From a virus, in the IMG/VR virus record IMGVR_UViG_3300037245_003639: DNA of 64,000 nucleotides. One strand, given 5' to 3'. A program made the translations under genes and the position numbers. The notes beneath the pieces were generated by a model. It saw only the letters and a list, made by a program, of their open reading frames with translations, did not search any database and was not told the origin of the DNA. Shown here one piece after another: positions 13,372 through 59,512 of this stretch (the first letter of the stretch is position 1; each line of letters begins with the position of its first letter).

Positions 13372-13383
13372 TTATCCTATCCA

Positions 13384-14918: not shown

Positions 14919-14922
14919 TGTT

Positions 14923-15409: not shown

Positions 15410-15417
15410 AACTCTTC

Positions 15418-15735: not shown

Positions 15736-15821
15736 CCAGCTAGCGGCAAGGTTAATGAGTACGTTTTACGCCAACGCATCTGCCTAGATTGGCTCTTTTC
15801 GTCCATCGTCGTTCGTTACTC

Positions 15822-16019
15822 CTATTCACGGCGGGGTGCGTCGCGACGGATCTGGGCGTGACGATAGCTCAAGTCCTTTTGAGCTTTGCGGAAACCAGTC
15901 TTATCGCACTTATGCTCAGTCCCGTCAGGATTCAGAGGACCGCCCCCTGCACCCCAGAGAAAACGTTGGCCACAATAAATGCAACGTCTAAGTGGCGGAG
16001 GCGGGCCTTTGCCGCTCAT
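15822..16019 (-). CDS. small zinc-ribbon protein
   Basis: CIYCGQRF...HKCDK. Confidence 0.4.
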   Translation of the reverse strand: MSGKGPPPPLRRCIYCGQRFLWGAGGGPLNPDGTEHKCDKTGFRKAQKDLSYRHAQIRRDAPRRE

Positions 16020-17621: not shown

Positions 17622-18494
17622 TCAACTGGAAGGACCATCTCCCCAACGAAATTTCGTAACTAGGTTATGCCAACGGGGATAATGGGGATTCTGCATGATT
17701 AGAGCGCGTTTCCGAGCGCTCCGCACTTCAAGAATATCCTGTGCATCAAGGTTAAAAACGTCCTGCCCGTCAACGACAACATCTGTTCCTTCATTGACTC
17801 GGACTGCCTCGATACGGATTTGGCTGTCAGCATCCACCACGATCGGGCAACAGTCAAAGGAATGGGCGTTGAGGGGATTGAGGATGATTCCTGGCATTCC
17901 AGGCATCATTACGGGGCCATGAGCGGACAGATTGTACGCTGTAGAGCCTGTAGGTGTCGCCACAATAATGCCGTCCCCACCGACCGTAGCAAGCTCGATA
18001 CCGTCCACAATCAGCTTTAGATAGACCATACGATGCGGGGCGCCAGCGTTGATAACCACGTCATTCAGCGCCCACTGCCACGGTCTCCAATCGCCCAGCT
18101 TGCCTTGAATCCGCATTTGCAGCATAAGTCGCCGTATAATGTTCGCATCTGTGAGTTCTGGCAGTAACTCTTTCAATTCCGCGACTGAAAAAGCGGTCAG
18201 GAATCCGACCTTGCCGAAGTTGACACCAATCAGCGGAACCTGACGTTCTTCCAACTGGCGGGCCACTGACAACATGGTTCCATCACCACCCAGAACGACG
18301 ATGCGGTCTGCATTGTACTTTGGCAAATCGCCAATAGTGAACTTGGAACCCTCCCCAACGGAGTCTACACAGACGAGTTCTCCAACAGACTTTACCAAAG
18401 CCAGAATTTCTGGGAGAGCATCTTGAACTTCTTGCTTCATGAGATTAGAGACAATTGCATATTTCATAGAGTTGCACTCGTGGGATGTTGCCAA
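17622..18494 (-). CDS. nadK: NAD+ kinase
   Basis: GGDGTMLSVARQ, NDVVINAG and DGIIVATPTGSTAYNLSAHGP are the diagnostic NadK/PpnK motifs. Confidence 0.8.
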   Translation of the reverse strand: MATSHECNSMKYAIVSNLMKQEVQDALPEILALVKSVGELVCVDSVGEGSKFTIGDLPKYNADRIVVLGGDGTMLSVARQLEERQVPLIGVNFGKVGFLTAFSVAELKELLPELTDANIIRRLMLQMRIQGKLGDWRPWQWALNDVVINAGAPHRMVYLKLIVDGIELATVGGDGIIVATPTGSTAYNLSAHGPVMMPGMPGIILNPLNAHSFDCCPIVVDADSQIRIEAVRVNEGTDVVVDGQDVFNLDAQDILEVRSARKRALIMQNPHYPRWHNLVTKFRWGDGPSS

Positions 18495-19507: not shown

Positions 19508-20034
19508 GCTGCCGCCCTCGGTTGTGCTAAAGTAAGGTTGTGTTCCCAAAAATAACGAGTCGGACTGTCGTCATCGAACTCGATTTCGTATGCTTGACAG
19601 CCAGGAGCAGGGAGACCAAACTCATTGTTGCGAGCTATCACTGTCCCTAGTTGGTCGTTCTTTGGACCGTAGGGGTACATAATTCCACTTCGCCCATTCA
19701 CGAAGACCCTATCTCCCACGTCGAACTTTCTGGCTGCCTCAGCCCGTTGCTTGGCAAGATCGAAGCCCTCTCGAATCAGGGCTTTCGGCGGGCCATAATC
19801 AGGATGTTTATTAGTTAGCCTGCAATGGCTGAATGAGACACAATTGTAATGACCACATTTCTTACAGAAGTAGCCAGAACCACAGCCGAGCATGTTGATT
19901 GTGGTATGACATTTGCCACAGCATTCACCGCTCCAACCATTGAAGCCCGGCCAACAAAGAGCATCGGCCACTTTCTCAATCGTCCAGCCCATAAGTCGGG
20001 CGAATCGGATAGCTGCTACTGCTGCACTTGCCAT
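19504..20034 (-). CDS. Cys-rich hypothetical protein
   Basis: CWPGFNGWSGECCGKCH...CGSGYFCKKCGHYNC. Confidence 0.45.
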   Translation of the reverse strand: MASAAVAAIRFARLMGWTIEKVADALCWPGFNGWSGECCGKCHTTINMLGCGSGYFCKKCGHYNCVSFSHCRLTNKHPDYGPPKALIREGFDLAKQRAEAARKFDVGDRVFVNGRSGIMYPYGPKNDQLGTVIARNNEFGLPAPGCQAYEIEFDDDSPTRYFWEHNLTLAQPRAAA

Positions 20035-28128: not shown

Positions 28129-28376
28129 GTTTTTCTCCGACCGCCCCGTTTACCCAATTCCAGTGATTTGTCAGGACCGTAGAAAATATACTGCACTACT
28201 TCGACGCTGACCGTGTGGCCATGTGCTTTGGCATGTCTCGCTGCAACGCCCTGAGCATTCAGACTGGACCATTCCTTCTCACAGTCTTGGCATACTGCAA
28301 AAATGCATCGGCGACCCAGTTTGTAGCTCATGTCAATCCTACCAGCTAATTCCGTAGTCTCCAAGCAAGTCGGCAA
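28125..28376 (-). CDS. small zinc-binding protein
   Basis: CIFAVCQDCEKEW...HAKAHGH. The start is uncertain because the ORF overlaps its neighbour. Confidence 0.3.
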   Translation of the reverse strand: MPTCLETTELAGRIDMSYKLGRRCIFAVCQDCEKEWSSLNAQGVAARHAKAHGHTVSVEVVQYIFYGPDKSLELGKRGGRRKT

Positions 28377-29115
28377 GGTCGCTTAGATCGACGCACCCAT
28401 CACCGTCGAAATCAGCGTCAGGGTTGTAGTCATCATCGCCGGTGCATGAGAAGTAGGCCGCTAACAGCGCGGCGAGGTCGGAGAGATCCACGTCACCGTC
28501 ACCATCGATGTCGCAGATCACAACGACTTCCAGATCATCTATCCATACATCATCATGATGTTCCGGTATGTAATTCCCAAGACTGAGTTCAACAGAGTAG
28601 ATAGCATTACCTTCCGTAGATATACCAAATCGCCGACTATGTCCGTCACCTCCTCTGGATGGTTGTATTTGATGAAGTGGGTTACCTTCGGCATCAAACG
28701 CAGTTATAAGAGTACCCCATCCCTCTGCTGATGCTTCGAGATCAATGAAGCTTGCGCTTACAGATTGAACTCCCCGTGGACTGCCGCTGATTGGATCGAC
28801 AAACCGTAACCGAAAAATCCCCGAAACCCAAACCTCGCCAGGGATGACCCCAATGGAAGGGGCTGGAATCAGTACGTGGCCCAAATACTCTCTACCATCA
28901 CCATACACATTTTGCATAGTTTGTCCATTTTGCACGGACGGCAGTTGAGACTCGTCAGGATCTCCCAGGTGAGAAATGGGTTCGAAAACGATTCCCACAC
29001 TCATCAACTGGTTCGCCAGGATAGTTCCCACGGGGAATGTATCAAAATTCACAGTTGTCGTCGAGCCTCCATAGGCCACAGCCGCGAGCAAGAACGATAC
29101 CAAAGTCGCTTTCAT
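28339..29115 (-). CDS. secreted protein with C-terminal dockerin
   Basis: MKATLVSFLLAAVAYGG signal peptide behind a GGAGG RBS. C-terminal DIDGDGDVDLSDLAALLAAY and DFDGDGCVDLSDLADLL. Confidence 0.65.
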   Translation of the reverse strand: MKATLVSFLLAAVAYGGSTTTVNFDTFPVGTILANQLMSVGIVFEPISHLGDPDESQLPSVQNGQTMQNVYGDGREYLGHVLIPAPSIGVIPGEVWVSGIFRLRFVDPISGSPRGVQSVSASFIDLEASAEGWGTLITAFDAEGNPLHQIQPSRGGDGHSRRFGISTEGNAIYSVELSLGNYIPEHHDDVWIDDLEVVVICDIDGDGDVDLSDLAALLAAYFSCTGDDDYNPDADFDGDGCVDLSDLADLLGDYGISW

Positions 29116-29167
29116 AGTTTGCCTCCAGAGAATCACAGAATCATAACCAGGACTACTGCCGAGATGT

Positions 29168-29196
29168 ATGCTACCAGAGATAGAGAAGATTGTCAA
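29168..29196 (-). promoter_or_regulatory. sigma70-type promoter (TTGACA-17-TAGCAT)
   Basis: ccTTGACAatcttctctatctctggTAGCAT. It lies in a roughly 47-bp block that is duplicated at 29684-29730. Confidence 0.6.
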
Positions 29197-30312: not shown

Positions 30313-31257
30313 TTATCCAAAAAAGTCATCGGCGTGGATGAATTGGAATCCGCATCGAGAGGCGAAGGTGCGATCTGTCGTCTGATCCCCCACCATTATT
30401 GAGTCACTCGGGGACAGGTTATGTTTCATAATGAACTGGACGCCCAATCCGCTCATTGGTTTGCGACAGTAGCAGTTGATGGGAGCAGGGTTATGAGGAC
30501 AGTAGGCATACTCAATGTCTACCTGGAGCTTCCTATTCGTAATATCAAAGCAAGCTCTAGCTTGCTCATCAGTTGGGCTCCCCTTGGCCACTCCGCTCTG
30601 GTTGCTGACGCCGAGTAAGGCGTAGCCCTCTTTTTCATACTTACGCAGGACAGCCGCCCGCCCTGGAAGAACCACAACTTGCTTCGGGTCTGTAGGCCAC
30701 TTCAACTCTGCCCCATTAGTATCTTCGCTTACCCGGAGAGTGCCATCGTAGTCCAAGATGATAGCGGCGTTCGTCCACTTTGCGGGAAAGCCCCGCATAA
30801 ACGGTCGCCTGTCAACTCGATGGAAGCCCTCAGCTACAGTGGGCGCCTGGAACTGCTTGCGGTAATTGAACAACACAGCAGTGGGAAACATATTTGGGCT
30901 GGAATGCTTTTTGATTTCCTCAGGCATCAACAGTCTGCCTTCACGCTCGATCATCCGCACGCAAGCGTTGAATTGAGCGTCTTCGATGGTGGCTGTGAGC
31001 CAGTCACAAATGACTGTAACATCGAATTTTTTGGCAGCCTCAAGGAAGGGTTTGCGGCTCTCGACTGTAGGGAAGGTGTTGTCGAGAACAACGTCTTTGC
31101 CCGCTTTGAGAGCGGCCACCATCTTGGGAACCAAATCAGCTACTTTGCCCCCGGCCTTATCTCGATTGAGATAGACAAAACCCTGCTCTGTATAGGCCGA
31201 GGCGATTGAGGACTTACCCGCAGCGGGATAGCCCATTACCATAACGACTCGTGGCAT
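30313..31257 (-). CDS. pnkp: T4-type polynucleotide 5-kinase / 3-phosphatase
   Basis: N-terminal P-loop GYPAAGKSS (kinase) and C-terminal ILDYDGTL (the DxDGT HAD-phosphatase motif), in the same order as T4 Pnk. Confidence 0.7.
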   Translation of the reverse strand: MPRVVMVMGYPAAGKSSIASAYTEQGFVYLNRDKAGGKVADLVPKMVAALKAGKDVVLDNTFPTVESRKPFLEAAKKFDVTVICDWLTATIEDAQFNACVRMIEREGRLLMPEEIKKHSSPNMFPTAVLFNYRKQFQAPTVAEGFHRVDRRPFMRGFPAKWTNAAIILDYDGTLRVSEDTNGAELKWPTDPKQVVVLPGRAAVLRKYEKEGYALLGVSNQSGVAKGSPTDEQARACFDITNRKLQVDIEYAYCPHNPAPINCYCRKPMSGLGVQFIMKHNLSPSDSIMVGDQTTDRTFASRCGFQFIHADDFFG

Positions 31258-31264
31258 CAGATTC

Positions 31265-31489
31265 TCACGTTGCAAAGTAGATGACGACAGTAACGACAGT
31301 AATCAAAGCAGCTAGTCGAACGTAGATGCGGGCTTCCATGCCATTCACGCCATTCACGCCATTCACGACTTCCGCTCGCAGTTTCTCGTAACAATCCGGA
31401 CTAATGTCGCCGTTGGCAAGAGCTTCGGCAAAATGCACCGTGTGGCCCGGTGACTGTATCGTCTCCGCAATCAGCTTCTGGCTGTCCAT
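31265..31489 (-). CDS. hypothetical protein
   Basis: 74 aa with a C-terminal TM segment. Confidence 0.35.
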   Translation of the reverse strand: MDSQKLIAETIQSPGHTVHFAEALANGDISPDCYEKLRAEVVNGVNGVNGMEARIYVRLAALITVVTVVIYFAT

Positions 31490-34841: not shown

Positions 34842-35477
34842 CTAATATCTTTCCGAAGTGATATCGCGATATTTAAGCTTGAATTGGCAACGCGACTTCT
34901 TCGAGCTATTTAGGTCAAGTTGCAACTTACCGCGTTTCTTCTTTAGCACAATGCCTTCGGTGAGATGCATTCCCATGCCACCTGCGATCCAGTCGTCCTT
35001 GAGTTCATTGAAGTGGCCAAAGAAATCATTCTCGCGGGTCTCGGCCAAACAGACATCCTGCCCGTTGGCAAGGTCTTGACAACGAGCCCAACGCTCGACG
35101 TATGGTTCATTGGGCAACCATGCGTCATCCCACGCCAAACAGTCGAAGATGTAAACCCGAGGTTCATGGCCTCCCCGTGGACCCACGAACTCAGCATCAA
35201 TGACTGTCTCATCAGGAATGGGCAGCCGCAGCAACTGTTGGATGATGACTTCGGGCATCTTCGATCTGGCACTGATAAAGCGCCCCACCCGAGACAGTAG
35301 CGACATACCGGCTGGAGTTTGACCATCAGGCAACAGGATCATACCTGCCGATTTGTAGATTTCCAAACGCCAGCCATCATATTTGTGCTGACTGAGCCAT
35401 TCATGGGGGCGCAGGGTAGGCAATAACTCTGGTGTGCATTCCTTGGGCTTATCTGGATGACGAAAGCGCTTGAGCAT
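34842..35477 (-). CDS. minimal ATP-dependent polynucleotide ligase (DNA-ligase-like nucleotidyltransferase)
   Basis: Motif I KYDGWR (KxDGxR), motif III VIDAEFV, motif IV EGIVLKKK and motif V FKLKYR. Confidence 0.6.
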   Translation of the reverse strand: MLKRFRHPDKPKECTPELLPTLRPHEWLSQHKYDGWRLEIYKSAGMILLPDGQTPAGMSLLSRVGRFISARSKMPEVIIQQLLRLPIPDETVIDAEFVGPRGGHEPRVYIFDCLAWDDAWLPNEPYVERWARCQDLANGQDVCLAETRENDFFGHFNELKDDWIAGGMGMHLTEGIVLKKKRGKLQLDLNSSKKSRCQFKLKYRDITSERY

Positions 35478-36631: not shown

Positions 36632-37453
36632 TTAGCGTCCATGCTGAAAAAAAGCATTTTTACTGAGTGACCCAGACGACACTCGGGCTTGGCTGGTCGA
36701 GATTACCGACTGCGAAACTGTACCGAAGACTCGACGAATACCCGTGCCATCCAAGCTTGAAGTTAGACGATGATGACGAGGGAACCCAATTTCATTAGCC
36801 GCTCCATCACCATCGTTCTCCTCGCCAAAGAACACGTAGGCCAGTACAAACTCCTGGGCCTTTAAAACATCCGCCGTCAGATTGCGGACTTTTGTCTGGC
36901 CCACCAGCGAGGCGTTCTCCCAGCCATCAGACAAAACGACCACAATCGATTTCGTGCGGGTTCCGTTGTCTCGCAAAGTCTGACCGTAGCTTACCAACCC
37001 GGTAATTCCCTTGAAAACCGCGTCAAACAGTGGGGTCATACCGTTCGGTTGATAATCAGCGTCGGTCAGTTCAGGACATTGAGGGACCGGCGTAAAACCA
37101 TGAATCAGCCGCACATTATCCTTGGGCTCACCGATACGAGAGAAAGCCCATACAGAGACCAAAATCGACTCAGCATTCTTGGCCCCCTTGAGCGGCTCAA
37201 GAAACTGTTCTTTGTACTGCTTGAGAACTTCGGCCTGATAAGGATTCATCGAATCGCTGGCGTCAAGCAGAACCACGACCAAGGTCACTTCTTCCGAATC
37301 GATCTCATCCACGTCCACGCCCGCGCATCCAGCCAGAGCGATATCGTCCAACTCTGTCTCGATGGCTGCTTGTGAAGCAGAACTGATGATACCCGCCGAG
37401 GCCGCATTCGCAAGCGTTGCGGCCACCTGGGGATTGCTTACAGATGAAACCAT
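36632..37453 (-). CDS. von Willebrand factor A (vWA) domain protein
   Basis: The MIDAS motif DASDS in VVVLLDASDSM, plus the downstream LSDGWEN. Confidence 0.65.
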   Translation of the reverse strand: MVSSVSNPQVAATLANAASAGIISSASQAAIETELDDIALAGCAGVDVDEIDSEEVTLVVVLLDASDSMNPYQAEVLKQYKEQFLEPLKGAKNAESILVSVWAFSRIGEPKDNVRLIHGFTPVPQCPELTDADYQPNGMTPLFDAVFKGITGLVSYGQTLRDNGTRTKSIVVVLSDGWENASLVGQTKVRNLTADVLKAQEFVLAYVFFGEENDGDGAANEIGFPRHHRLTSSLDGTGIRRVFGTVSQSVISTSQARVSSGSLSKNAFFQHGR

Positions 37454-37456
37454 GTG

Positions 37457-37801
37457 TCAAACTCCCTTCCAGTAACATTGGCCCTCTGCGGGCATGTAAC
37501 CCCGACGTTCCAAGAACGCTCTAAGTCGTTCGTTGTGAACACATTCAACAAAAACTACCAAACCCAACTCGGTAGCATAACTTTCCACCAACGCAATAAA
37601 GCGAGTAAACAAACCCTTACCTCGATATCGCTCTGGAATTTCAAAAGAGGCCAAGTCCAACGTCTCCACCCGACTTTCACCAAGATATCTTTTTGCTCTT
37701 CTTGTGTAAAGTCGGAGTTTGAAGGCTGGAAGCTCGATCCACGCATTGATAGGATACTGTTCGTATCCTTGAGCAAAATCAATAAGGGGTTGAATTTCCA
37801 T
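37457..37801 (-). CDS. GNAT-family acetyltransferase-like protein
   Basis: RGKGLFTRFIALVE...ELGLVVFVECV...FLERRGY matches the acetyl-CoA binding motif A (R/QxxGxG/A). Confidence 0.5.
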   Translation of the reverse strand: MEIQPLIDFAQGYEQYPINAWIELPAFKLRLYTRRAKRYLGESRVETLDLASFEIPERYRGKGLFTRFIALVESYATELGLVVFVECVHNERLRAFLERRGYMPAEGQCYWKGV

Positions 37802-38818
37802 TTACACGCCGATGGGGTCTGTGGAATTGACCAATTTCACGCCCAATTGTTCCAGTTCGGCAAGCCGAGCGTTGGCCATCTTATCAAACTCAATCTTGCT
37901 GCCATCAGGCAGGTCGATATCGGCCACACTGCTCATACAGTCTTGCAGAACGTGTAGCTTCTCCAGCAGGTGATTCTTTCCTTGATGCTGAAAAAGAGCA
38001 ACGACTTGGTTCAGCGTCTCGATGACGCAGTGCGATTTGGCCTGACCTGCAAAATAGACGCGATCGGCCTCTTCCCACTTGGCCAGAACTCTTGTATTGA
38101 GCCGAGTTTGCGGGTCTTCGGGAAACTCTACTTCGGCTTGCAGGACGCCGTAGTTCTCCGATAATGCCGACATTCCCTTTGTGGTCGCATCATATTGATT
38201 CGACCGAGCCGAGGAGTGAAACATAAGAGCCTCGGCGAAAGCCGGATCGAAGGCATGGCCGGGCGTGCCAAGTATGCAATGGATAGGCCAGATACAAAGG
38301 TTCTTTTTCGACTGTTGTTCGAGCTTATCGAGATACTGTTGCATCTTGACCGGATGACGCACTGGACGCCATACATCGTCCCGAACATCCTTGGCCGTAA
38401 TGATGGTAAAGGGGTCGGGATGCTCGTTCTGCTGATACACTACTCCGTTCGGCCGCGTCGTCGGCTTCGTCCCAGCAATCCAATTGAAGCGATGAAAAGG
38501 CTGGTACAGGAAATGTGAATCCAGCGAGCCAAGAACGTGAGAAATTCTGCCCACGTTCTCATACATGAAACGGCAGAGACGGTCGGTGTCTGCTACCGCC
38601 CCAGGGACCGGCAGGGCTCCCTCGGGATGAACAAAATCGACTTGGCAGTCGATCACTGACAGAATGATACCACCATCTTCATCATTCTGCCACTTTTGGC
38701 ATTTCTTGACGCCATGCTGCGCAGCAAAAGCGGCACCATCTGTAGCTGCCCGATCCAATTCGGGAAGTCGAAGAGTACCGCATCGGGATGCGTCATGCCA
38801 GGATGGAACGTTACTCAT
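37802..38818 (-). CDS. isochorismatase/nicotinamidase-family cysteine hydrolase (long form)
   Basis: ILSVIDCQVDF (compare LLVIDMQNDF) and AGQAKSHCV (the catalytic Cys motif GxxxxxCV). Confidence 0.55.
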   Translation of the reverse strand: MSNVPSWHDASRCGTLRLPELDRAATDGAAFAAQHGVKKCQKWQNDEDGGIILSVIDCQVDFVHPEGALPVPGAVADTDRLCRFMYENVGRISHVLGSLDSHFLYQPFHRFNWIAGTKPTTRPNGVVYQQNEHPDPFTIITAKDVRDDVWRPVRHPVKMQQYLDKLEQQSKKNLCIWPIHCILGTPGHAFDPAFAEALMFHSSARSNQYDATTKGMSALSENYGVLQAEVEFPEDPQTRLNTRVLAKWEEADRVYFAGQAKSHCVIETLNQVVALFQHQGKNHLLEKLHVLQDCMSSVADIDLPDGSKIEFDKMANARLAELEQLGVKLVNSTDPIGV

Positions 38819-38848
38819 AGGTCAGACCTCCATGTAGAGTCCATCAGT

Positions 38849-38889
38849 AGCTTACTCGATTGTCAAGGGTCTGTCAAGGCCCTGTCAAG
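38849..38889 (-). promoter_or_regulatory. promoter with a triple TTGACA array (tgtcaa at 38861, 38872 and 38884)
   Basis: gcTTGACAgggccTTGACAgacccTTGACAatcgag TAAGCT. The middle copy has a 17-nt spacer to TAAGCT. Confidence 0.5.
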
Positions 38890-38895
38890 CCAAAA

Positions 38896-39096
38896 TCACT
38901 CGTTTATGCAATCCCACACGACCAGTGACACGGTGATGAAAAGAAACGCCGCGCCAATGCCTAATCCCAGCCAGCCGCCGGTCGGCGGACGACGGGGCAA
39001 CCCCAACCCGTGCATCTCACGGGCATACGCATAGCCGTCCCATTCCTCCGGGGGCATACCTGGAGGGGGCGGACACGGGCCTATGGGTATCACCAT
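38896..39096 (-). CDS. small Pro-rich membrane protein
   Basis: PCPPPPGMPPEEW, then the TM segment GIGAAFLFITVSLVVW. Confidence 0.35.
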   Translation of the reverse strand: MVIPIGPCPPPPGMPPEEWDGYAYAREMHGLGLPRRPPTGGWLGLGIGAAFLFITVSLVVWDCINE

Positions 39097-39113
39097 ATCG
39101 TTTTACTCCAAAA

Positions 39114-41018
39114 TCACATAATCGTAAGATAGTTAATTGTCTTATCTCCAGTCACCAATAGGCCATCTCTATACTGGTCAATGGTATCGCTATCGGAGAC
39201 AAACTGTTCAGTTTCACTAATCAGTCCGAACTGGCTTTTCCCTGATAAGTCAATAATTTCCTGCACCACTCCGTCATCAGTTGGATGCAGAATAATGCCA
39301 TTTACGCCCTGTGGAACAGCAAAAGCCTTACCATGAATGTTCCTATGAGTATCCGAGGAGACCGCATCCACTCGGTAATGGCACTTGATTACGTCCTCAC
39401 GGATGATGAATACATGCGTGAATGTCTTTCCTTGGATTTCGGTTTTTAGCAACAATAGAATCGATGATCCCGCAAAACGGACAGATACATCGATAATAGA
39501 TTCATTGTCTTTGAGTTTTGTTTCAGCCGGTGGGTACCAGAGTTCACCTTGAGGCTGCTTGTCAAAACGATATACGAAGAACTTCAAGACATCAAAGAAA
39601 CGTTGCATTCCGAATAGCATGTCTCTGTGTGATGAGGCCGTAATCCAGGTTTGCTTACGGGCTACCGCGTTTATATTCCGCTCTTCCGTAGTAATGAGAT
39701 TCACTCGATAGAGGAACCCCTGAGAAACCCTGAATAAGTAACTCTTGCTGCTACTAAAAACGCGGGAGCCATGGAAGGAATCCACGGGCAGTCTGTTTGG
39801 TATTGGAGGATTATCGATAGCAATGAAAGAGAGATCGTCTCGCATACCGTCATTGATAACCAAATACCCTTGGCAGAGAGCAAAACGAGGTTTCCCCCTC
39901 CGTACCATCACTGGCATTCTGTGGGGAACCTTGTTGGGCTCAGAGTGATACAAGACGTACTGTGAGCCCTCCAGAGCAACAGCGTAGATGCTACGACCCG
40001 ACAGATGCCGCCAGACAAAGCTTCCAGGGGTCTCTAGCATCTTCTCGCAGTTCACCGTTCGCTTTCCTGGAACGACCTTGACCTTAACCTGCCGTTGGAT
40101 CTGTTGGGTATTGACTTTGGCACATTGCGGACAAGATGAATGCTCCGAAGGGTACATGGCCGCACATGAATGGCAAGTAACCAGCGAATCTCTGTATTCT
40201 TCTAAGACTTCCACAGGGGGAATGAAACGCTCACCCTTTTTGAACATTCTGTCAAATAACCCCTTCAAAGCATCACCCAACAAATCAGGATGGAAACCTG
40301 CTTTGGGATATTTTACATCAGGATCAAAAAAAGTAATGCGGGCCTCAGCTCTGTCTGGGACTGTCTTGAACTTCTTATGAACGCCACCGTATGGGTGGAC
40401 CATCAACAACGACCTAATATACATGACCAACCATGCATACCAGTCATGTTCCGGCTTGAAATACGGCTTAGTTGCAAGTTTCAGATTGTACAACTCTGGG
40501 GCCAGGAAATTCTCTGTTCCAACCATACAGGGATGCTGACCAAACTGAAAGCTATCAGCATCAATGAAAACCATACGGGTTTTCCAAAAAAGAGCGTTCA
40601 AATCGTTGTAGTCGCCGACAGTGATGCCCAAAGGGTGAAGGAGGCTAGTTGTTCTATGGGCATCCAAAAACAGGTCCGTCACCACCGCAGAAGTAAGGGC
40701 GGGATTACTCTGACGGAACTTTTTGCTGGCGAGCATCTGGATAACTTCAAACTGTGGAGAAACCATTTGCATCGCATAGCCAATGACCTTCTTACCCGAT
40801 GGGTCAAAAACCAAAGATGATGGCGCACAAATCGTTTTGGGGAGCCCAGTGATTTTGAGGAAATCTTCTAATTTCTCAGCGCGGGCTGAACTGGGTTTAT
40901 GGAATAGTTTGACCGCAGTTGATCCAACTTGCACAACAGTCGCTTCCCCACCTACGCCGAGAACGTCGCTCTGGCGGAGTTTTATCCGCTTCCCGTTAAG
41001 GAGTATGGTCTTCTGCAT
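39114..41018 (-). CDS. eukaryotic-like Ser/Thr protein kinase with C-terminal zinc-ribbon and extension
   Basis: GVGGEATVVQVG with TAVKLF (Gly loop and the VAIK lysine), DADSFQFG (DFG motif), GTENFLAPE (APE motif), then CHSCAAM...CPQC. Confidence 0.65.
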   Translation of the reverse strand: MQKTILLNGKRIKLRQSDVLGVGGEATVVQVGSTAVKLFHKPSSARAEKLEDFLKITGLPKTICAPSSLVFDPSGKKVIGYAMQMVSPQFEVIQMLASKKFRQSNPALTSAVVTDLFLDAHRTTSLLHPLGITVGDYNDLNALFWKTRMVFIDADSFQFGQHPCMVGTENFLAPELYNLKLATKPYFKPEHDWYAWLVMYIRSLLMVHPYGGVHKKFKTVPDRAEARITFFDPDVKYPKAGFHPDLLGDALKGLFDRMFKKGERFIPPVEVLEEYRDSLVTCHSCAAMYPSEHSSCPQCAKVNTQQIQRQVKVKVVPGKRTVNCEKMLETPGSFVWRHLSGRSIYAVALEGSQYVLYHSEPNKVPHRMPVMVRRGKPRFALCQGYLVINDGMRDDLSFIAIDNPPIPNRLPVDSFHGSRVFSSSKSYLFRVSQGFLYRVNLITTEERNINAVARKQTWITASSHRDMLFGMQRFFDVLKFFVYRFDKQPQGELWYPPAETKLKDNESIIDVSVRFAGSSILLLLKTEIQGKTFTHVFIIREDVIKCHYRVDAVSSDTHRNIHGKAFAVPQGVNGIILHPTDDGVVQEIIDLSGKSQFGLISETEQFVSDSDTIDQYRDGLLVTGDKTINYLTIM

Positions 41019-41805
41019 TTAATCTCTCCGCAGTTATGATGGAACAATCGTCCTCGAAATATCCCCTATCGGAACGACTGTTCATCCACTTCTTAAGCCC
41101 GAATTGACCCGTCTTTCCCCATTGTTGATTGAAAAGGACAGGCGTTAATTCGGAATGCTTCTGCATGGAGAGGCTAAGTTTATGTTCATTGTGATGGCTG
41201 AAACCATCAGAAGCCACCATGACCCGTTTGGTATTGGCATCGAATGATAGCGTTTCAAAAGCCATGGGAATTACATCAGGACCGACTCCCACACTGCCGG
41301 GGTCTCGCAAACAATGATAGGCCAGATAATGTGGAACATTCTGCTGGTCAAGCTCGTGGTGGTAATCGTCACAAGCGTAGATGCCGTCACCGCAATGGAA
41401 TATGATTCCGCTTCCTTCACGGGGGATAATGAACCCCATCATAGTAGCCAGCCAATGATGCTTGACGTAATAGGCGATTTGCTGAGGGGTCTCTATAGGA
41501 CATGCCAAATGCACCTGCATATCAACGAAACGGGTCAAACTCCCGAACAATGTGGTCACAATTTCATCAGAAGTAAACCCCATACGATGCAAGCGAGAGA
41601 CTTCGGACAAAGCAAAATTGCACAACATACGAGCGCCAACTTCGGAATAATCACCTGAACCGCAGCCATCACAACCTATGCCGCAGATAATTTCATCGGA
41701 AGCGAAAAAGTCAGCCGCATCTTGGCAGTTGGCTCCCTTGTAAAGGTGATGATGACCTACCTTGACAGCGGCACTCACTGTCCATCGGTCTGTATCAACT
41801 CTCAT
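40996..41805 (-). CDS. PP2C-family Ser/Thr phosphatase
   Basis: NCQDAADF, IGCDGCGSGD and VASDG are the PP2C metal-binding Asp motifs. Confidence 0.65.
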   Translation of the reverse strand: MRVDTDRWTVSAAVKVGHHHLYKGANCQDAADFFASDEIICGIGCDGCGSGDYSEVGARMLCNFALSEVSRLHRMGFTSDEIVTTLFGSLTRFVDMQVHLACPIETPQQIAYYVKHHWLATMMGFIIPREGSGIIFHCGDGIYACDDYHHELDQQNVPHYLAYHCLRDPGSVGVGPDVIPMAFETLSFDANTKRVMVASDGFSHHNEHKLSLSMQKHSELTPVLFNQQWGKTGQFGLKKWMNSRSDRGYFEDDCSIITAERLNAEDHTP

Positions 41806-41812
41806 CTAACAC

Positions 41813-42043
41813 CTATGTGCGAATGGCACGTTTAATGCTGCGGGTTCGGCGTTGTTTTGGAGTCACAGTTCTGGAACGGCTTCGCTTAACAGGGCGTCCA
41901 TCATTTAGGGCATCTTGATAAATCTGATGAGCCCTGGCACGAGAGACTCCTAGTTCGTCCGCGATTTCTCGGAAAGTCATTTTCTTCTGTGAACGCAGAG
42001 TCAGAACTTTTCGATACCTACGATTACGTTCGTACGGCTTCAT
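41813..42043 (-). CDS. small sigma-70 region-4-like HTH protein
   Basis: MTFREIADELGVSRARAHQIYQDAL resembles region 4.2. No region 2 is present. Confidence 0.5.
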   Translation of the reverse strand: MKPYERNRRYRKVLTLRSQKKMTFREIADELGVSRARAHQIYQDALNDGRPVKRSRSRTVTPKQRRTRSIKRAIRT

Positions 42044-42066: not shown

Positions 42067-42095
42067 AGTATACACGACCACAGGTAAACTGTCAA
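42067..42095 (-). promoter_or_regulatory. sigma70-type promoter (TTGACA-17-TATACT)
   Basis: ctaTTGACAgtttacctgtggtcgtgTATACT, then gggagtgg and the ATG at 42043. Confidence 0.65.
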
Positions 42096-42989: not shown

Positions 42990-43475
42990 TCATTTCCAAT
43001 TTGGAGGGATAAAAGAAAACAGTCTATTTCGACGCATTGGATGCTGCAAACTCCTAATGGCCTTGGCCTCAATTATCCGAACGGTCTCTTTAGACAGCCT
43101 GAACATCTCGCCTATTTCTCGTAAATTATGCGAGGAGCCACCGATGCCATATCGCAGCCTGATCACTTTTTGCTGCCTATATGTCAAGGTGCTGACCAGC
43201 TTGTCTATTATTTCTTTTAGTTCAGACGCGCAAATAGGGTCAACGGTATGATCATCAACAGCGAGGTGTTCAGCCGTTAATGCTCGCTGCATCAAACATT
43301 TGCTAGGGTCCAAGTCTTCGGGCCTACAGTCGCATAAGGCAGATATTTTGTTCAGAGTTTCTATCCCTACCGATAGCCGACCAGTTTCGATGCCATTCCA
43401 AGTCCCTAAAGCCGTTCCAGAAAGCAAAGCAGCGCAAGCTTGACTTAAGTTATAGTCCAAACGGAACGAAACCAT
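42990..43475 (-). CDS. XRE-type HTH fused to a sigma-70 region 4 domain
   Basis: N-terminal LSQACAALLSGTALGTWNGIETG...IETLNKISALC...PEDL (Cro/C1-type HTH). C-terminal LTYRQQKVIRLRYGIG...HNLREIGEMFRLSKETVRIIEAKAIRSLQHP (classic region 4.2). Confidence 0.6.
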   Translation of the reverse strand: MVSFRLDYNLSQACAALLSGTALGTWNGIETGRLSVGIETLNKISALCDCRPEDLDPSKCLMQRALTAEHLAVDDHTVDPICASELKEIIDKLVSTLTYRQQKVIRLRYGIGGSSHNLREIGEMFRLSKETVRIIEAKAIRSLQHPMRRNRLFSFIPPNWK

Positions 43476-43492
43476 GATTTTGTTCCGCGAAC

Positions 43493-44509
43493 TCATAAGA
43501 GCATCAAGGGCATCTCGCCCACCATGACTTCGAACTCGAAGCCTTCTTCCACAAAATTAGGATCACCTACCCACACCGGATGGATATAGCGCCGTGGAAC
43601 TTTGTTCATGTGGACCAAACGAATACGATCTGTGGGTCGCTCGGGCAAGAACATCCTATTGACGGGCGGAATGCCTTTTAGCCACAGATGCCGAATATGA
43701 CCATGCCGGAAATGAGAAGCATGAGGCTGCCCCTCATCGGACTTGCCATTGAGAACATGATACAACCGCTCATGCGGAATCACGCTGAAAATTGCTTTAT
43801 CGCGAGTAAGTCTCTTGATTTCCCCCGTGGGACCAAACCCTTTCTTGGGCTTACTGCGAAGCATGTAATGGCAAGGAATGGCAAGGTTTGCCAAGTAAGC
43901 CAGAAAATCCGCCGCCAATCCAGGTTTAGGCTGTTTGGACTCCTGTTCGAAAGCCACCCACGCAGAACAGCCTTTCTGAACCAAAACCCTACTGAGATAG
44001 TCTCGGTATCGCTCGGGAGTGGTTTCCGCTCCAATGCTTTTGCAGACTTCTTCCAGAATTGCGATGGTTTTGTTTTTCGATACATTAGGGTTTTTATCAT
44101 CGAAACGGTCAGGGTCGAGATGTTCTAACCAGTGGAGCGCAGGTTTAGTATGAACCAACCTGCCGTCAATCAGCATTACGGCTCCCACATAAACCAACTC
44201 CGAACTGTCAGGTCGAGCAAGCAAAACTTTCAGGTTCTTACTGTAGACCATCCAGACGAGGCTGCGAACTGTCTCATCTTTGCATATTAATGAGGCAGCT
44301 ACGTCTTCGGCCAAAATCACGCAAGCATCATCTGGCCAAGGAATCTGCTCGATTGCTTGAAGAGATTGCACTCCGAGCCCCACTCGTTCCACGTCGCCAT
44401 CGAAGGCAAAGTAATAGACTGGCAGTGGCTTTGCAAATTGGGTGCGGGGATTCCGATAGATCGTAATCAAGGCCTCTCGAATCAGCCGTTGCCAAATCTT
44501 ACCGATCAT
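43493..44509 (-). CDS. hypothetical protein (338 aa)
   Basis: Long ORF, no confident motif. Confidence 0.45.
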   Translation of the reverse strand: MIGKIWQRLIREALITIYRNPRTQFAKPLPVYYFAFDGDVERVGLGVQSLQAIEQIPWPDDACVILAEDVAASLICKDETVRSLVWMVYSKNLKVLLARPDSSELVYVGAVMLIDGRLVHTKPALHWLEHLDPDRFDDKNPNVSKNKTIAILEEVCKSIGAETTPERYRDYLSRVLVQKGCSAWVAFEQESKQPKPGLAADFLAYLANLAIPCHYMLRSKPKKGFGPTGEIKRLTRDKAIFSVIPHERLYHVLNGKSDEGQPHASHFRHGHIRHLWLKGIPPVNRMFLPERPTDRIRLVHMNKVPRRYIHPVWVGDPNFVEEGFEFEVMVGEMPLMLL

Positions 44510-44994: not shown

Positions 44995-45672
44995 CTACAA
45001 CTTCGCTATATCATCCGCCTCAGCCGTCAACTCCTCGGGCTCTGGCGTGGTTATCGGTGCTGGAATTACATCGCCCTCATCAGGGGCAGCGGCCCCCAAG
45101 TCGGCTGTATCAGAAGGGGCAGAGACATAAGATTCCGCCGTCGTGTCATCAAACTCCCAGAGCGTGATATTCAGCTCCAGCGGCGTATCAGTATGTTCCT
45201 TGACCCACTTGGCAAACTTACTGCTGGTCTCGGTTCTCTTCTTCATTGCCTCGATGATTCCGAGAATCTTGGCTTTATCGCCACCTGCCAAACCACTGCC
45301 CATACCCGCCGGGATATGGACCTGATAGCCCAATCGCAAAGCTCTTAGAAACGTTACTTTCAAACAACGCTCCAAAGCTCTGTAATCAACCAGACAACCA
45401 GTACCGAGGGTTTGAGCGCACATGTTGGCGACAAACTTGCCCGTCTCGACTTCGACAAACTGTGTCTCCCCCATCGGAATGTCGCCCTGTGATTGTTCGT
45501 GCCACGCTTTGTAGGCCGCGACAGGAATGGGTGACATTTTACTCAGTGCCAAAACGAAGCCCCCACCCCAGGCACCCTTGCAGTTGACGATATGGGCAAT
45601 GATGACCCCATTTTTAGGAGTTCGAGAAACCGCCGTGGCATCTCCAGTTTTTATCTCAATCGGCATGGACAT
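44995..45672 (-). CDS. macro domain protein (ADP-ribose binding or hydrolase)
   Basis: VIIAHIVNCKGAWGGGFVLAL parallels the macro-domain (I/V)VNAAN...GGGGV motif. Confidence 0.6.
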   Translation of the reverse strand: MSMPIEIKTGDATAVSRTPKNGVIIAHIVNCKGAWGGGFVLALSKMSPIPVAAYKAWHEQSQGDIPMGETQFVEVETGKFVANMCAQTLGTGCLVDYRALERCLKVTFLRALRLGYQVHIPAGMGSGLAGGDKAKILGIIEAMKKRTETSSKFAKWVKEHTDTPLELNITLWEFDDTTAESYVSAPSDTADLGAAAPDEGDVIPAPITTPEPEELTAEADDIAKL

Positions 45673-45913
45673 ACCTTTCCAGTTCTTTTTTGTGACGACG
45701 ATAACAGGCCGAGCCAATCGGCCAAGCCCCAGCGTCATCTGACTGTTCAGCTTCGGCAGGCGTCAAGAAACGACAGTTGCCATCGCCAACGTAAACCCAT
45801 ACAGCCGCTTTGCCCTCATCTATTCCTTTACCACAAACGGCGCATGAAGTCTGGCTGTCTCCACAACGCCGTTCATTCTCGTGGTATCTCGGATGGCTAA
45901 AGGGCCTCAACAT
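45656..45913 (-). CDS. small Cys-containing protein (leaderless)
   Basis: ATG lies 6 nt after the TAATAT of promoter 45920..45948. Confidence 0.4.
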   Translation of the reverse strand: MLRPFSHPRYHENERRCGDSQTSCAVCGKGIDEGKAAVWVYVGDGNCRFLTPAEAEQSDDAGAWPIGSACYRRHKKELERYVHAD

Positions 45914-47164: not shown

Positions 47165-49861
47165 TTAGATCAACGGTTCTTCAGGCCCAGGCCCAGACAC
47201 TGGCATACCTGGATGAAGCGTCGGCCCAGGCCCTTGCTCTGCTATCGGAATGCCAACATTACGTGGATTACGAACAACCTGGCGCAATTGCTCCCAGAGT
47301 TCCTCGTCATCTTCATCCCAATCACCATCATCCTCTTCCATTTGATTGAAACCAAGCTTTATTCTGTCTTGGAACTCATTGCGATGACGATCAAAGAGTC
47401 TAAAAGTGCGTCCGGTATCAAGTTTTTTGTGACTAATGATGTCCAAAGCAAACAATTTGCGAATTTCTTCCATTTCCGCGAAAGTATAATCTTTTGTGCG
47501 TTCGGTCAGATCGCTTATATCCAAAACGCTCAACATGTCCTGTTGGAACCTCTCTGTAATAAACTGCGTCCGTAGTTTCTCTCCCGGGGCAGAGAATGGC
47601 AGCCACAGGTCAATACGCCCTGGACGCACAAACGCTTCATCCAATTCAACCATTTCGTTGGCAGTAAAAACGAAGACGATTCCTTCGGTCGGATAGATAC
47701 CATCCATGTTCGTCAGGAAGGGCAGAATCTCATAGTTGCCTGTCTTCCGATCTTTGATCATTACATCCAAATCATCAAAGAAGACAATAGCCGAACGATT
47801 GCGGGGCGGCGTGAATAACTGCCGAACTGAACCATGCCGTCTGACATCTTCATATTCTTCAAGCGTTATTACTCGATGGTAGAATCCATGTTCAATGGCC
47901 AGATTTCGCAGCCATTTGCAAGTCATCGTGTTATGATTTATAAAGCCACCCGCAGCGAAGGAGTGAGATTCTGGCACATAGAAGTCTGCGACAAAGTTCT
48001 GCGCAGAAACGTTGCTTTTGACCTGATCCCAGAAAATATCACCGCGAGCAATATTCCGCATTCTCGCAAGAACTTCTTTCCCAATTTTAGTTTCATCTAC
48101 AAGTTGAAGAAGGCGTTCAGACTTTCCATGAGACATTCTCTGAGTTCCGTCCTTGTATCTCTGGAACTCAGCGTGCATTCGACGATTGAAATTGCCACTT
48201 AATTTACATACATCTCTGAGCAAATCTGGATCATAGGGCACAATATCATAATTAGTGTTATACTTTTTCTCCTGGAATCTGATTTGTTTCCGTGCCACGC
48301 GGAATCCGATTTCGTCGAAGAAGCATTTAGCCTCCTTGCCATTTATATCTATAGCCCAAGCACCGTTATAATCATTGGGCTTATGACGCAATGATGAGAT
48401 AATACCAAAGTTGGTGAGCATCAGATGGACTGTTCGAGCTAACTCCTCAGAGTAGGAGTCAAAACCAACTCGACCCGTTGTATCTGCCCACCCGTCAGTA
48501 TCAAACAACCCCTGCAAAAACGCTCTTACACAGTCTTGCGGAGCCTCCAAAATACAACGTGGAACAGATTTTTGACATGCTCCCGCAGAACCAAGACCCA
48601 GGAGTTTGAGGAATCCTTTGATCTGAACGCTTTCAATGGTCACCGAAGTCAACCCATCGCGTCGTTTATCATCCTGCACATGAGGAGTTACCGAGAAGAG
48701 TCTGGAGAATAAAGCCACATATTCTCTCTCTAAGTCCGCCGTGGAGAATGCGATTCTGTTCTTGGTAGTTAAATTACCATCACCAGTAAGTAACCCCAGA
48801 AGATATGCGAGATCATCATCGAGAACAGATGGCAAGGAAACAGGGAGCCTACCAGAAGCCGTATGAGCATACGAGATATCTGTTTTGTACCCGAACAACA
48901 TCATCTTACGAGGAACAGCTACAAAATCGCCCTCTTCAATCTCGTCTAGCCTTTTCCATGTAATATCCTGTCCATCTGTTACAATGACGCGATGATTCCA
49001 CGTTCCTTCAAGTTGATAGCCAAAACGAGTGCTTATCTTTTTAGTGTCTCGCCATCCGCCATTGTAAATTTGGGCAGTTTCTTCTCGATGGCCATCTTTA
49101 TTCCATATAGTTACTGACTTGTCTGTGGCGTCATCAACTGCAAGATCTTCTATAAACTCGCCAATAGGCAGCAACCCGCTATTTGTAAATACAGGAGTAT
49201 CAAGAGAACAGCACTTTCCACATCCGGGTTTTCCGCACAACAAGGCTCCCCGTTTGTAAGGAATGTTGTACTTATCGTATTGGGCCTTCTTCTCTTTACC
49301 ATCCACTAGAAAACCAATAGTGTTTTTGTAAATATCAGTCAACATTCCACGAGGCAGGACAGGTGGTTCCAAGTTAGTAGCAGAGTGCTTCTCAATCTTC
49401 CTGGCGAATTTACGTAGACTAAAAAGGTTCCGTTTCTCCACAAATATGGAGAAACTAAGGGGATGATCGTCGAATTCACCGTTCCAATGCCAAAAACGAA
49501 CGGAATCACGTTCTCTTTGTGGACGGTTACGCTGATCAGGATTGAAGATAACGTATTCCCGCAACCCTACATCATAGCGGTCATACCATGAGCCATCATG
49601 TAATGCTGCCTGGGTTTGAACTATAAGTTTACCTTTTCCCTGGTCCTTTTTAGGCAACATTCCCATGGGCATGTCAATAGCGACAGGAATTCGCCTGATA
49701 TGTTTGACATCACGGGTTTCTTTAGAATTAGTAAGCTTGAGGCTTGCAGAAAATCTGCACATACAAAGGTCATCTTGTGAGAAGTCATATTCATCACAAA
49801 GGGCCTTAACAGCATATGCAAAAACAGCTTCGGGGTACTCAGGTTCAAAAACCATATTCAA
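47165..49861 (-). CDS. AAA+ ATPase (classic-clade type) interrupted by an intein
   Basis: The Walker A motif GKPGCGK|C...HN|T is split. The second region of homology is FTANEMVELDEAFVRPGRIDL. Acidic C-terminus. Confidence 0.7.
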   Translation of the reverse strand: MNMVFEPEYPEAVFAYAVKALCDEYDFSQDDLCMCRFSASLKLTNSKETRDVKHIRRIPVAIDMPMGMLPKKDQGKGKLIVQTQAALHDGSWYDRYDVGLREYVIFNPDQRNRPQRERDSVRFWHWNGEFDDHPLSFSIFVEKRNLFSLRKFARKIEKHSATNLEPPVLPRGMLTDIYKNTIGFLVDGKEKKAQYDKYNIPYKRGALLCGKPGCGKCCSLDTPVFTNSGLLPIGEFIEDLAVDDATDKSVTIWNKDGHREETAQIYNGGWRDTKKISTRFGYQLEGTWNHRVIVTDGQDITWKRLDEIEEGDFVAVPRKMMLFGYKTDISYAHTASGRLPVSLPSVLDDDLAYLLGLLTGDGNLTTKNRIAFSTADLEREYVALFSRLFSVTPHVQDDKRRDGLTSVTIESVQIKGFLKLLGLGSAGACQKSVPRCILEAPQDCVRAFLQGLFDTDGWADTTGRVGFDSYSEELARTVHLMLTNFGIISSLRHKPNDYNGAWAIDINGKEAKCFFDEIGFRVARKQIRFQEKKYNTNYDIVPYDPDLLRDVCKLSGNFNRRMHAEFQRYKDGTQRMSHGKSERLLQLVDETKIGKEVLARMRNIARGDIFWDQVKSNVSAQNFVADFYVPESHSFAAGGFINHNTMTCKWLRNLAIEHGFYHRVITLEEYEDVRRHGSVRQLFTPPRNRSAIVFFDDLDVMIKDRKTGNYEILPFLTNMDGIYPTEGIVFVFTANEMVELDEAFVRPGRIDLWLPFSAPGEKLRTQFITERFQQDMLSVLDISDLTERTKDYTFAEMEEIRKLFALDIISHKKLDTGRTFRLFDRHRNEFQDRIKLGFNQMEEDDGDWDEDDEELWEQLRQVVRNPRNVGIPIAEQGPGPTLHPGMPVSGPGPEEPLI
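47930..49213 (-). mobile_element. intein (about 428 aa) with a LAGLIDADG homing-endonuclease domain, inserted in the P-loop of the AAA+ ATPase
   Basis: It starts at Cys217 (CSLDTPV) and ends FINHN followed by Thr. It carries two LAGLIDADG motifs (LLGLLTGDGNL and LQGLFDTDGWA). Excising it restores GKPGCGKT. Confidence 0.65.
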
Positions 49862-59457: not shown

Positions 59458-59486
59458 TTGACAATCTTCCGAAAACTTGGTAATCT
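59458..59486 (+). promoter_or_regulatory. sigma70-type promoter (TTGACA-17-TAATCT)
   Basis: ggcTTGACAatcttccgaaaacttggTAATCT, then ggagatcctgcATG. Confidence 0.6.
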
Positions 59487-59512
59487 TCCGTAGTGTCAAT
59501 CGGAGATCCTGC

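Follow-up and report, generated by a model that had tools for sequence, protein, structure and literature searches.

Why would a virus encode a Ser/Thr kinase, a PP2C-family phosphatase and a von Willebrand factor A (vWA) protein in one block with a nicotinamidase-family hydrolase? The question is raised by a 64,000-nt stretch of DNA from the IMG/VR virus record IMGVR_UViG_3300037245_003639 (hereafter the window), in which six consecutive open reading frames (ORFs), all on the minus strand, lie between positions 36632 and 42043. A first-pass annotation, made from the letters alone, had named them as genes for a vWA protein with a metal-ion-dependent adhesion site (MIDAS), a GNAT, a nicotinamidase-family hydrolase, a Hanks-type kinase, a PP2C phosphatase and a helix-turn-helix (HTH) protein, and had likened the block to the TerY-P triad, reportedly described by Anantharaman, Iyer and Aravind in 2012. 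The ORF listing, profile searches and family alignments uphold all of these coordinates and family assignments, as well as the 23-nt overlap between the PP2C and kinase genes (40996..41018). The conserved unit within this block consists of four genes, PP2C, kinase, nicotinamidase and vWA, which recur together in huge phages and in bacteria. With moderate confidence, we propose that this unit descends from TerY-P and acts as a phosphorylation switch gating the first step in the deamidating salvage of nicotinamide, by which huge phages may rebuild or manage NAD+.

A Four-Gene Unit Conserved in Phages and Bacteria

The first neighborhoods of diverse kinase homologs, verified by tblastn, held the same four genes in the same order. 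Loci were seeded on the kinase (60 cellular and 26 viral) and their ORFs searched with iteratively built hidden Markov models (HMMs); co-occurrence was scored within a 7-kb window, and enough flank meant 3.5 kb or more to either side of the kinase. PP2C, kinase, nicotinamidase and vWA genes occurred together in 26 of the 28 viral and 24 of the 34 cellular loci with enough flank (50 of 62 overall), a grouping far beyond chance. The carriers are enriched in Myxococcota, Cyanobacteria and Chloroflexota, and among huge phages. Co-occurrence of kinase homologs with vWA and PP2C genes, on which the first-pass annotation had made its reading depend, is therefore found nearly everywhere by gene-neighborhood analysis. 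The nicotinamidase, which that annotation had treated as coupled to the triad, is indeed present; it is not a mere neighbor of the triad but rather its fixed fourth member.

The order PP2C-kinase-nicotinamidase-vWA was seen at 39 loci, and the circular permutation nicotinamidase-vWA-PP2C-kinase also occurs. Because both orders keep PP2C beside kinase and nicotinamidase beside vWA, these can be regarded as fixed pairs, and the two pairs are almost never apart among the surveyed relatives. Median gaps are -4 nt between PP2C and kinase (77 loci), 18 nt between kinase and nicotinamidase, and 29 nt between nicotinamidase and vWA.

A coverage analysis divides the kinases into three groups. Full-length relatives with a zinc ribbon and a propeller, linked to nicotinamidase and vWA, make up group A. 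Those of group B are similar in the kinase domain only and carry a different C-terminal domain, yet are still linked to nicotinamidase, vWA and PP2C. Group C, with the architecture published for TerY-P (PMC11090510, PMC4978471), consists of vWA-PP2C-kinase triads without a nicotinamidase, some of them with ∼460-aa kinases that end in a zinc ribbon. The TerY-P-like label fits by kinship, since the nearest kinases outside the nicotinamidase-linked set lie in vWA-PP2C-kinase triads. It also fits by architecture, the block encoding a vWA protein with MIDAS, a PP2C and a Ser/Thr kinase domain followed by a zinc ribbon.

Three loci with full-length or related kinases and ample flanks (L008, L029 and L055) have no nicotinamidase or vWA gene; in L008 only PP2C and kinase are present, beside the gene for a giant TLC/HEAT/cNMP-binding protein. 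In these loci the module may have decayed or taken on another purpose. The cassette is also carried by the P0017/P0098/P0218 contigs (557 kb) and by P0018, deposited as "Promethearchaeota archaeon" or "Bacteroidales bacterium" metagenome-assembled genomes, which look like huge-phage contigs mis-binned into cellular genomes.

Kinase and Phosphatase Keep Their Conserved Sites

Single-sequence searches of Pfam, NCBIfam and the Protein Data Bank (PDB) with the kinase and with the nicotinamidase returned nothing or marginal matches only, and the identities of both proteins rest on family alignments rather than on such searches. The kinase gene (39114..41018, minus strand) was interpreted with its family alignment and an AlphaFold2 (AF2) model. 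Its product matches Pfam Pkinase at E=0.069 (13 bits vs a cut-off of 31.7), and because this score falls under the cut-off, we take the protein to be a divergent branch of the Hanks-type kinases. A database search found 86 full-length homologs of ∼590-655 aa, several of them on contigs of 480-580 kb, and tblastn against annotated phage genomes found three unannotated huge-phage records that match the N-terminal domain only.

In a 20-sequence alignment, the catalytic Lys and Asp, which the first-pass annotation had left to careful alignment, are invariant. So are the Gly-rich loop (G21/G23/G24), K37, D192, the catalytic loop D136...N141 with its canonical D+5 Asn spacing, D153/D155 at the DFG position and the APE-like P174. 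The conserved alphaC Glu could not be identified in this alignment, where the aligned position (E48 in the window) varies. The Hanks-type (eukaryote-like) domain spans residues 1-270 (40209..41018) and adopts a bilobal kinase fold in the AF2 model built on the family alignment (predicted local distance difference test score, pLDDT, 89.5); Foldseek matches its half of the protein to the kinase domains of AMPK, CaMKII, PknG and ASK1.

A four-Cys zinc ribbon follows at residues ∼279-302 (40113..40184). Its C282, C285, C296 and C299 are invariant in 20/20 sequences, and CxxC...CxxC stands at the same place in most full-length homologs. The zinc-ribbon extension noted in the first-pass annotation is thus real, but it is not the end of the protein: a C-terminal, all-beta propeller lies beyond it at residues 312-634 (39117..40085). 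The propeller is confident in the AF2 model, and its Foldseek matches are DDB1, the clathrin N-terminal domain, the Cdc4 WD40 domain and prolyl-endopeptidase. An exhaustive search with the propeller only found 127 matching proteins among 1.84 billion representatives. Since the matches are so few, and the full-length ones are all proteins of ∼600-650 aa with the domain at ∼315-630 (the rest being shorter and fragment-like), the propeller appears to occur almost only in this kinase family. Its presumed role is that of a sensor or substrate-docking domain.

The neighboring PP2C-family Ser/Thr phosphatase (40996..41805, minus strand; 269 aa) matches Pfam PP2C_2 at E=6e-13, and its metal-binding residues D29, D46-G47, D140-G141, D200-G201 and D252-D253 are at least 98% conserved across 83 family members.

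The Hydrolase Groups with the Nicotinamidases

Could the four genes be mere neighbors in a crowded phage genome, or the 338-aa product of 37802..38818 (minus strand) be some other isochorismatase-like hydrolase, unrelated to NAD? As a single sequence the protein has no Pfam match, Isochorismatase included, NCBIfam PncA reaches E=0.044 and the PDB matches are weak (E=0.03); moreover, the window copy of the module is broken by the GNAT gene and a long gap. A 22-sequence family profile, however, matches nicotinamidases only in the PDB, namely yeast Pnc1 (2h0r, E=3.2e-11) and Mycobacterium tuberculosis PncA (3pl1, E=1.2e-7); we assign the protein to a long PncA subfamily. All six catalytic and metal residues are invariant in the 22 sequences. 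The catalytic triad D57/K214/C264, at least 95% conserved in 74 sequences, aligns with the catalytic positions of PncA and Pnc1, and the Asp-His-His metal ligands D100/H102/H180 fall in the LDSH and WPxHC motifs common to 3pl1 and 1im5. A four-gene synteny kept across phyla and phages and repeated adjacency to NrtR, PncB and NadE likewise speak against chance proximity, which we regard as hardly credible.

Relatives of the 338-aa protein number 663 and fall into two tiers. The first comprises proteins of ∼335 aa encoded on the large contigs that also carry the kinases, among them a 100% identical protein on a 403-kb contig annotated as a "nicotinamidase-related amidase"; the second comprises ∼307-aa cellular proteins often annotated as nicotinamidase. 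Because in solved nicotinamidases the Asp-His-His metal site, conserved here, binds the ring through its free pyridine nitrogen, the likely substrate is nicotinamide rather than nicotinamide mononucleotide (NMN) or NAD.

The vWA Protein and Its Partners

The 273-aa vWA protein (36632..37453, minus strand) scores above the Pfam gathering threshold for VWA (E=2.6e-6) and matches phrog_7371 (E=3.7e-15). Its MIDAS is complete, with D64-x-S66-x-S68, T140 and D176 conserved at 93-99% in 70 family members, and it is by this domain and MIDAS, not by a TerY-specific model, that we call the protein TerY-like. The family profile has no sequence match in the PDB; only a fold search was informative, the best PDB matches of the AF2 model (pLDDT 92.4) being integrin alphaM I domains. 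Weak similarities to VWA_CoxE and cobaltochelatase are hints only. The curated vWA alignment has three invariant serines, S247, S249 and S254, which sit on the last helix of the model.

In nearly all surveyed loci, the vWA gene adjoins the nicotinamidase gene. The vWA protein might accordingly act mainly as a metal-insertion or assembly chaperone of the nicotinamidase, with the kinase and PP2C regulating another target and the operon serving for co-expression only. vWA/MIDAS proteins aid metal-center assembly elsewhere, and the nicotinamidase-vWA and PP2C-kinase pairs are kept separate in both gene orders. Yet chaperone vWA proteins usually work with a MoxR-type ATPase, and the module has none. 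The triad-only relatives also tie the vWA family ancestrally to kinase and PP2C, not to the nicotinamidase, and the two pairs hardly ever part company among the surveyed relatives. Nicotinamidases do need a bound metal and may rely on metallochaperone-like proteins (PMC6941528), but we judge a primarily chaperone role unlikely.

NAD Genes Surround the Unit

Every NAD+-cleaving enzyme yields nicotinamide, which nicotinamidase turns into nicotinic acid; this reaction is the entry step of the deamidating (Preiss-Handler) route formed by PncA, PncB, NadD and NadE. NrtR is an ADP-ribose-sensing regulator of NAD genes that is released by ADP-ribose. The first neighborhoods of the module already held NadE, NAD kinase, NrtR, PnuC, a NadR-like protein and an ADP-ribosylglycohydrolase. 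In the seeded search, NrtR was present in 24 kinase-seeded cellular loci, mostly directly upstream and on the same strand, which is consistent with a five-gene operon of NrtR plus the four genes in bacteria, including complete Corallococcus chromosomes. Neither the window nor any viral locus other than L003 has NrtR.

The same picture comes from the 799 flanking ORFs when they are clustered without bias. Among the most recurrent families are NadE (15 loci, vs 14 in the seeded search), NrtR, a type-II phosphoribosyltransferase-like family (9), NAPRTase/PncB (6) and NAD kinase (4); these families occupy ranks 1-4 and 8, and rank 5 looks like an antisense artefact over NrtR. Stand-alone nicotinamidases of the long PncA subfamily adjoin NrtR as well, in Chloroflexota, as pncA does in the classical nrtR-pncA operons (PMC2330246). 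The neighborhood of locus L007 adds PnuC, a NadR-like protein, an NMNAT-NAD kinase and an ADP-ribosylglycohydrolase. On this 79-kb contig, the region downstream of the cassette (11287-15884) encodes a second, canonical isochorismatase and two LSDAT_prok (SLOG-like) proteins along with the NMNAT-NAD kinase fusion and the ADP-ribosylglycohydrolase, and amounts to a dense NAD/ADP-ribose island.

The window itself has three further genes of this kind. An NAD kinase of 290 aa (17622..18494, minus strand; Pfam NAD_kinase_C E=6e-26, NAD_kinase E=7e-17) is homologous to the NAD kinases found beside the cassette in L003, L007, L012 and L023; it adjoins a radical-SAM-like ORF (18464-19549) and a GHKL-type ATPase-like ORF (20037-21821). 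A 247-aa macrodomain protein (44995..45738, minus strand) has no Pfam match but matches PDB 5e3b at E=5.2e-22. Macrodomains of one family lie in the cassette flanks of viral loci L069, L072, L083 and L087, in L072 at a distance of ∼100 nt or less from the vWA gene. The HMM made from these four matches the window protein at E=1.5e-26. Finally, a WGR domain and a PARP catalytic domain (E=9e-21) are combined in a 545-aa protein (59477-61114, plus strand), which has a eukaryote-style PARP architecture and is a possible internal source of nicotinamide. Seeds for PnuC, NadR-like proteins and NMNAT found no window homolog besides the NAD kinase; Adps, Namat and Nampt were not specifically searched.

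What Is Particular to the Window Copy

The closest relative, L095, whose kinase is 75% identical, has the order Sigma70_r4-PP2C-kinase-nicotinamidase-vWA. The window copy differs from it in two places.

First, a 114-aa ORF (37457..37801, minus strand) stands between the nicotinamidase and vWA genes. It matches Acetyltransf_1 at E=1.3e-4 (22.6 bits, cut-off 20.7) over the C-terminal half of the profile only, and can be called, weakly, a short GNAT. This ORF had been counted in the block, where it does lie, yet it is not part of the module: it has 0 matches in 94 loci and is absent from the two closest relatives, L095 and L096, in which the nicotinamidase and vWA genes abut. The relatives without it include one of 61% identity. 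We therefore reject the GNAT as a module member; it is an insertion seen only in this window.

Second, the gap between the kinase and nicotinamidase genes is 295 nt here vs the median of 18 nt elsewhere. It contains a promoter-like TTGACA-18-GACAAT (38859..38888, minus strand; 10/12 consensus positions), found by a consensus scan and a pattern match only. A 66-aa Pro/Gly-rich ORF with a C-terminal hydrophobic helix (38896-39096, minus strand), absent from the closest relative, fills the gap; it may be either an inserted small membrane protein or spurious.

Directly upstream of PP2C lies the gene for a 76-aa sigma-70 region-4-type HTH protein (41813..42043, minus strand; Sigma70_r4 E=1.8e-9). 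It is present as first annotated, and a 76-aa Sigma70_r4 gene occupies the same position in L095; a search with the protein found no match in the 94 loci. It is common only to the window and its closest relative, and we keep it only as a clade-specific neighbor, possibly a local regulator. A second sigma-70 region-4 protein of 168 aa, with an N-terminal Cro/C1-type HTH (42990-43496, minus strand), is encoded within 1.7 kb of it, and no full sigma factor (regions 2-4) was seen in the window.

Upstream of the HTH gene, the same scan found TTGACA-17-TATACT (42067..42095, minus strand; 11/12), again a pattern match only. Sites with a perfect TTGACA and a 17-18-nt spacer stand on the minus strand at 42095-42067, 36025-35997, 42946, 38888, 36622 and 35845. 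In all, 12 promoter-like sites were found vs 7.1 +/- 2.4 expected, and two share an identical TTGACA-17-TATACT. These repeated sites may mark early or middle phage promoters.

A Phosphorylation Switch on Nicotinamide Salvage?

The gene content, the intact active sites, the folds, the conserved synteny and the NAD-gene context allow us to propose, conditionally, a substrate, phosphorylation targets, a direction of regulation and a role in infection. The most likely origin of the module is the union of a TerY-P phosphorylation triad with a long-form pncA gene that was under NrtR control. The propeller would sense a protein or ligand cue, upon which the kinase would phosphorylate the vWA protein, the nicotinamidase or both; the invariant S247, S249 and S254 on the last vWA helix are candidate acceptor sites. 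Through its MIDAS metal site, the vWA protein may bind the nicotinamidase and so gate or metallate it, and PP2C would reset the switch. In bacteria, the operon would additionally be under NrtR, itself released by ADP-ribose. In the huge phage, where NrtR is missing, nicotinamide set free by host NADase defenses or by the phage's PARP-like enzyme would probably be recycled toward NAD+, or else inhibitory nicotinamide would be cleared, with the phage NAD kinase and macrodomain acting alongside.

Among the central weapons of bacterial immunity is NAD+ depletion, carried out by TIR, SIR2 and related NADases. A more specific and more tentative version of our proposal, which we would rate as doubtful, is that the module gives huge phages, and many bacteria as well, a hitherto unrecognized, phosphorylation-gated NAD+ recovery route: the propeller-bearing kinase would detect NAD+ cleavage or infection stress and, via the vWA protein, switch on the nicotinamidase to feed the Preiss-Handler route, so that phages outlast NAD+-depleting immunity.

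The same genes can also be read as a conflict system in the TerY-P tradition, in which the kinase-propeller protein senses infection or a host immune event and the nicotinamidase is an effector acting on NAD-based immunity. By removing nicotinamide it might draw NADase or ADP-ribosyltransferase reactions forward, or it might block reversal or signaling that depends on nicotinamide; on a phage, such a system would be an anti-defense or superinfection-exclusion device. The presence of a PARP-like ADP-ribosyltransferase and a macrodomain in the window suits this reading, as do the enrichment of carriers in Myxococcota, Cyanobacteria, Chloroflexota and huge phages, the bpMoxR/DUF5691/SWIM genes beside the L004 cassette and the Tox-REase-5 genes at Corallococcus loci. 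However, the module has no toxic effector domain, and conversion of nicotinamide to nicotinate is harmless to the cell. Its recurrent neighbors are NAD-biosynthesis genes and NrtR, not variable defense-island genes, and the cassette-linked enzyme is nearly the same at conserved positions as stand-alone, NrtR-linked nicotinamidases. Although PADLOC includes TerY-P models, no PADLOC model assigns the four proteins to a defense system: PP2C, kinase and nicotinamidase have no match at E<=0.1, and the vWA protein has only an off-target, 12-bit match to the Hachiman HamB helicase model (E=0.006). Kinship does connect the module with TerY-P triads, which PMC11090510 describes as companions of restriction systems and, in one form, as a stand-alone anti-phage defense. 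The first-pass annotation, which had placed the block among signaling or conflict modules, was right about the TerY-P-like character; the context favors NAD salvage over a generic conflict module, and we consider the conflict reading improbable, if worth keeping in view.

Several points nevertheless weigh against a switch on NAD salvage. A conflict role has to be reckoned with because the TerY-P relatives are otherwise tied to restriction or defense loci, and the kinase may have as its target an unrelated protein of host or phage. One conserved position, I56 vs V, separates the cassette-linked nicotinamidases from the stand-alone ones; because only this residue differs, the enzyme has no obvious module-specific regulatory motif. 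In the window, the 295-nt gap with its own promoter-like site and the GNAT insertion loosen the module, which makes co-transcription of all four genes uncertain here. Finally, no PncB, NadD, NadE or NrtR gene lies in the 64-kb window; lacking PncB, NadD and NadE, it does not establish a complete phage-encoded pathway, the rest of which would have to come from the host.

Phage pathways of NAD+ reconstitution are only now being catalogued. If our proposal of a phosphorylation-gated salvage step is right, it adds a nicotinamidase-based route, hard-wired to a kinase/phosphatase/vWA switch unlike any described pathway. In the more tentative version, this would amount to a fourth "NARP", regulated and deamidating, and no earlier case would exist of NAD salvage in prokaryotes being controlled by eukaryote-like kinase signaling. 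The TerY-P triad would gain a concrete, assayable enzymatic output, so that what such triads sense and phosphorylate becomes testable. Cultivable Corallococcus strains, which carry this operon behind NrtR, provide a tractable model in bacteria.

The Huge-Phage Setting

The window looks like part of a huge phage. The contig with the identical nicotinamidase is 403 kb long, homologs lie on IMG/VR contigs of 200-545 kb and in deposited huge-phage genomes, and the window encodes a 1237-aa lysin-domain protein, RtcB and families known only from PHROG; it holds no capsid or terminase gene, and its tape-measure match is weak. Further genes of the window are of note. An RNA/DNA-end repair set (23736-25145, 30313-31275 and 34842-35477, all on the minus strand) comprises an RtcB ligase (E=4e-78), a polynucleotide kinase/HAD-phosphatase fusion and a short ATP-dependent ligase-like protein. 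An AAA ATPase gene (47165-49861, minus strand) is split by an intein with a LAGLIDADG homing-endonuclease domain; L095 has an AAA gene at a similar place, apparently without the intein. A right-handed beta-helix protein with Chlamydia-PMP-like repeats and a C-terminal dockerin-type domain (26608-28128, minus strand), whose gene adjoins an EF-hand-containing ORF (28339-29196), is a possible host-surface-binding or depolymerase protein.

Comparison with Known Systems

The first-pass annotation had called the coupling to an NAD-related hydrolase a nonstandard arrangement, and the literature searched contains no description of it. Nor is the module as a whole described there; a passing mention in the original TerY-P description is possible. 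The Nudix-TF/ARG/vWA system (Iyer et al. 2022) was considered as a prior description and rejected, as it has no nicotinamidase, kinase or PP2C, and the 2022 survey of viral NAD+/ADP-ribose systems mentions neither nicotinamidase nor PP2C.

As summarized in PMC11090510 and PMC4978471, TerY-P consists of a TerY-like vWA protein, a PP2C and a Ser/Thr kinase whose C-terminus is a zinc ribbon. Our module shares a vWA protein with MIDAS, a PP2C and a kinase domain followed by a zinc ribbon, encoded together, and its nearest triad-only kinase relatives keep the classical vWA-PP2C-kinase order. It differs in having a nicotinamidase as a fixed fourth gene between kinase and vWA, in a ribbon that is internal and followed by a 320-aa, family-specific beta-propeller, in its permuted gene order and in its presence in huge phages. 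Its flanks also differ: they hold NAD-salvage genes and NrtR, where TerY-P has tellurite-resistance, McrBC/CoCoNuT or other DNA-processing genes. The TerY-P-like stand-alone system of Gao et al. 2020 (as cited in PMC11090510) has the three-component logic of vWA, PP2C and kinase as well, but there the kinase is fused to an OB fold, whereas in the module it ends in a zinc ribbon and propeller, with a nicotinamidase in addition.

From the side of NAD metabolism, the closest counterparts are the nrtR-pncA and pncA-pncB niacin salvage operons, which are under transcriptional control by NrtR only (Rodionov et al. 2008, PMC2330246). Bacterial homologs of the module similarly encode a nicotinamidase with NrtR, in many loci near PncB or NadE. 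Between NrtR and pncA, however, the module puts a trio of kinase, phosphatase and vWA genes, and its phage copies, L003 excepted, lack NrtR. Phage pathways of NAD+ reconstitution, NARP1, NARP2 and NARP3, use ADPR-PP/Namat, Nampt/Nmnat or PnuC/NadR (PMC13464706), and jumbo phages carry NAD-synthesis clusters (PMC11662467). Phage-encoded recycling of NAD precursors in a huge or jumbo setting would be common to these and to the module, near which NadE, PncB and NAD kinase genes lie in related phages. None of the NARPs uses a nicotinamidase or kinase/phosphatase control, the NAD clusters have no nicotinamidase-kinase unit, and the route proposed for the module is a deamidating one.

The logic of the switch itself has a parallel in PpkA-PppA-Fha1 of Pseudomonas type VI secretion, where the vWA domain is the periplasmic part of the kinase, the target is an FHA protein and the output is secretion. 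Both systems combine a Hanks-type kinase, a PP2C and a vWA domain in what is, or in our case would be, a post-translational on/off switch. In the module, by contrast, the vWA is a separate protein, and the output would be an enzyme of NAD metabolism.

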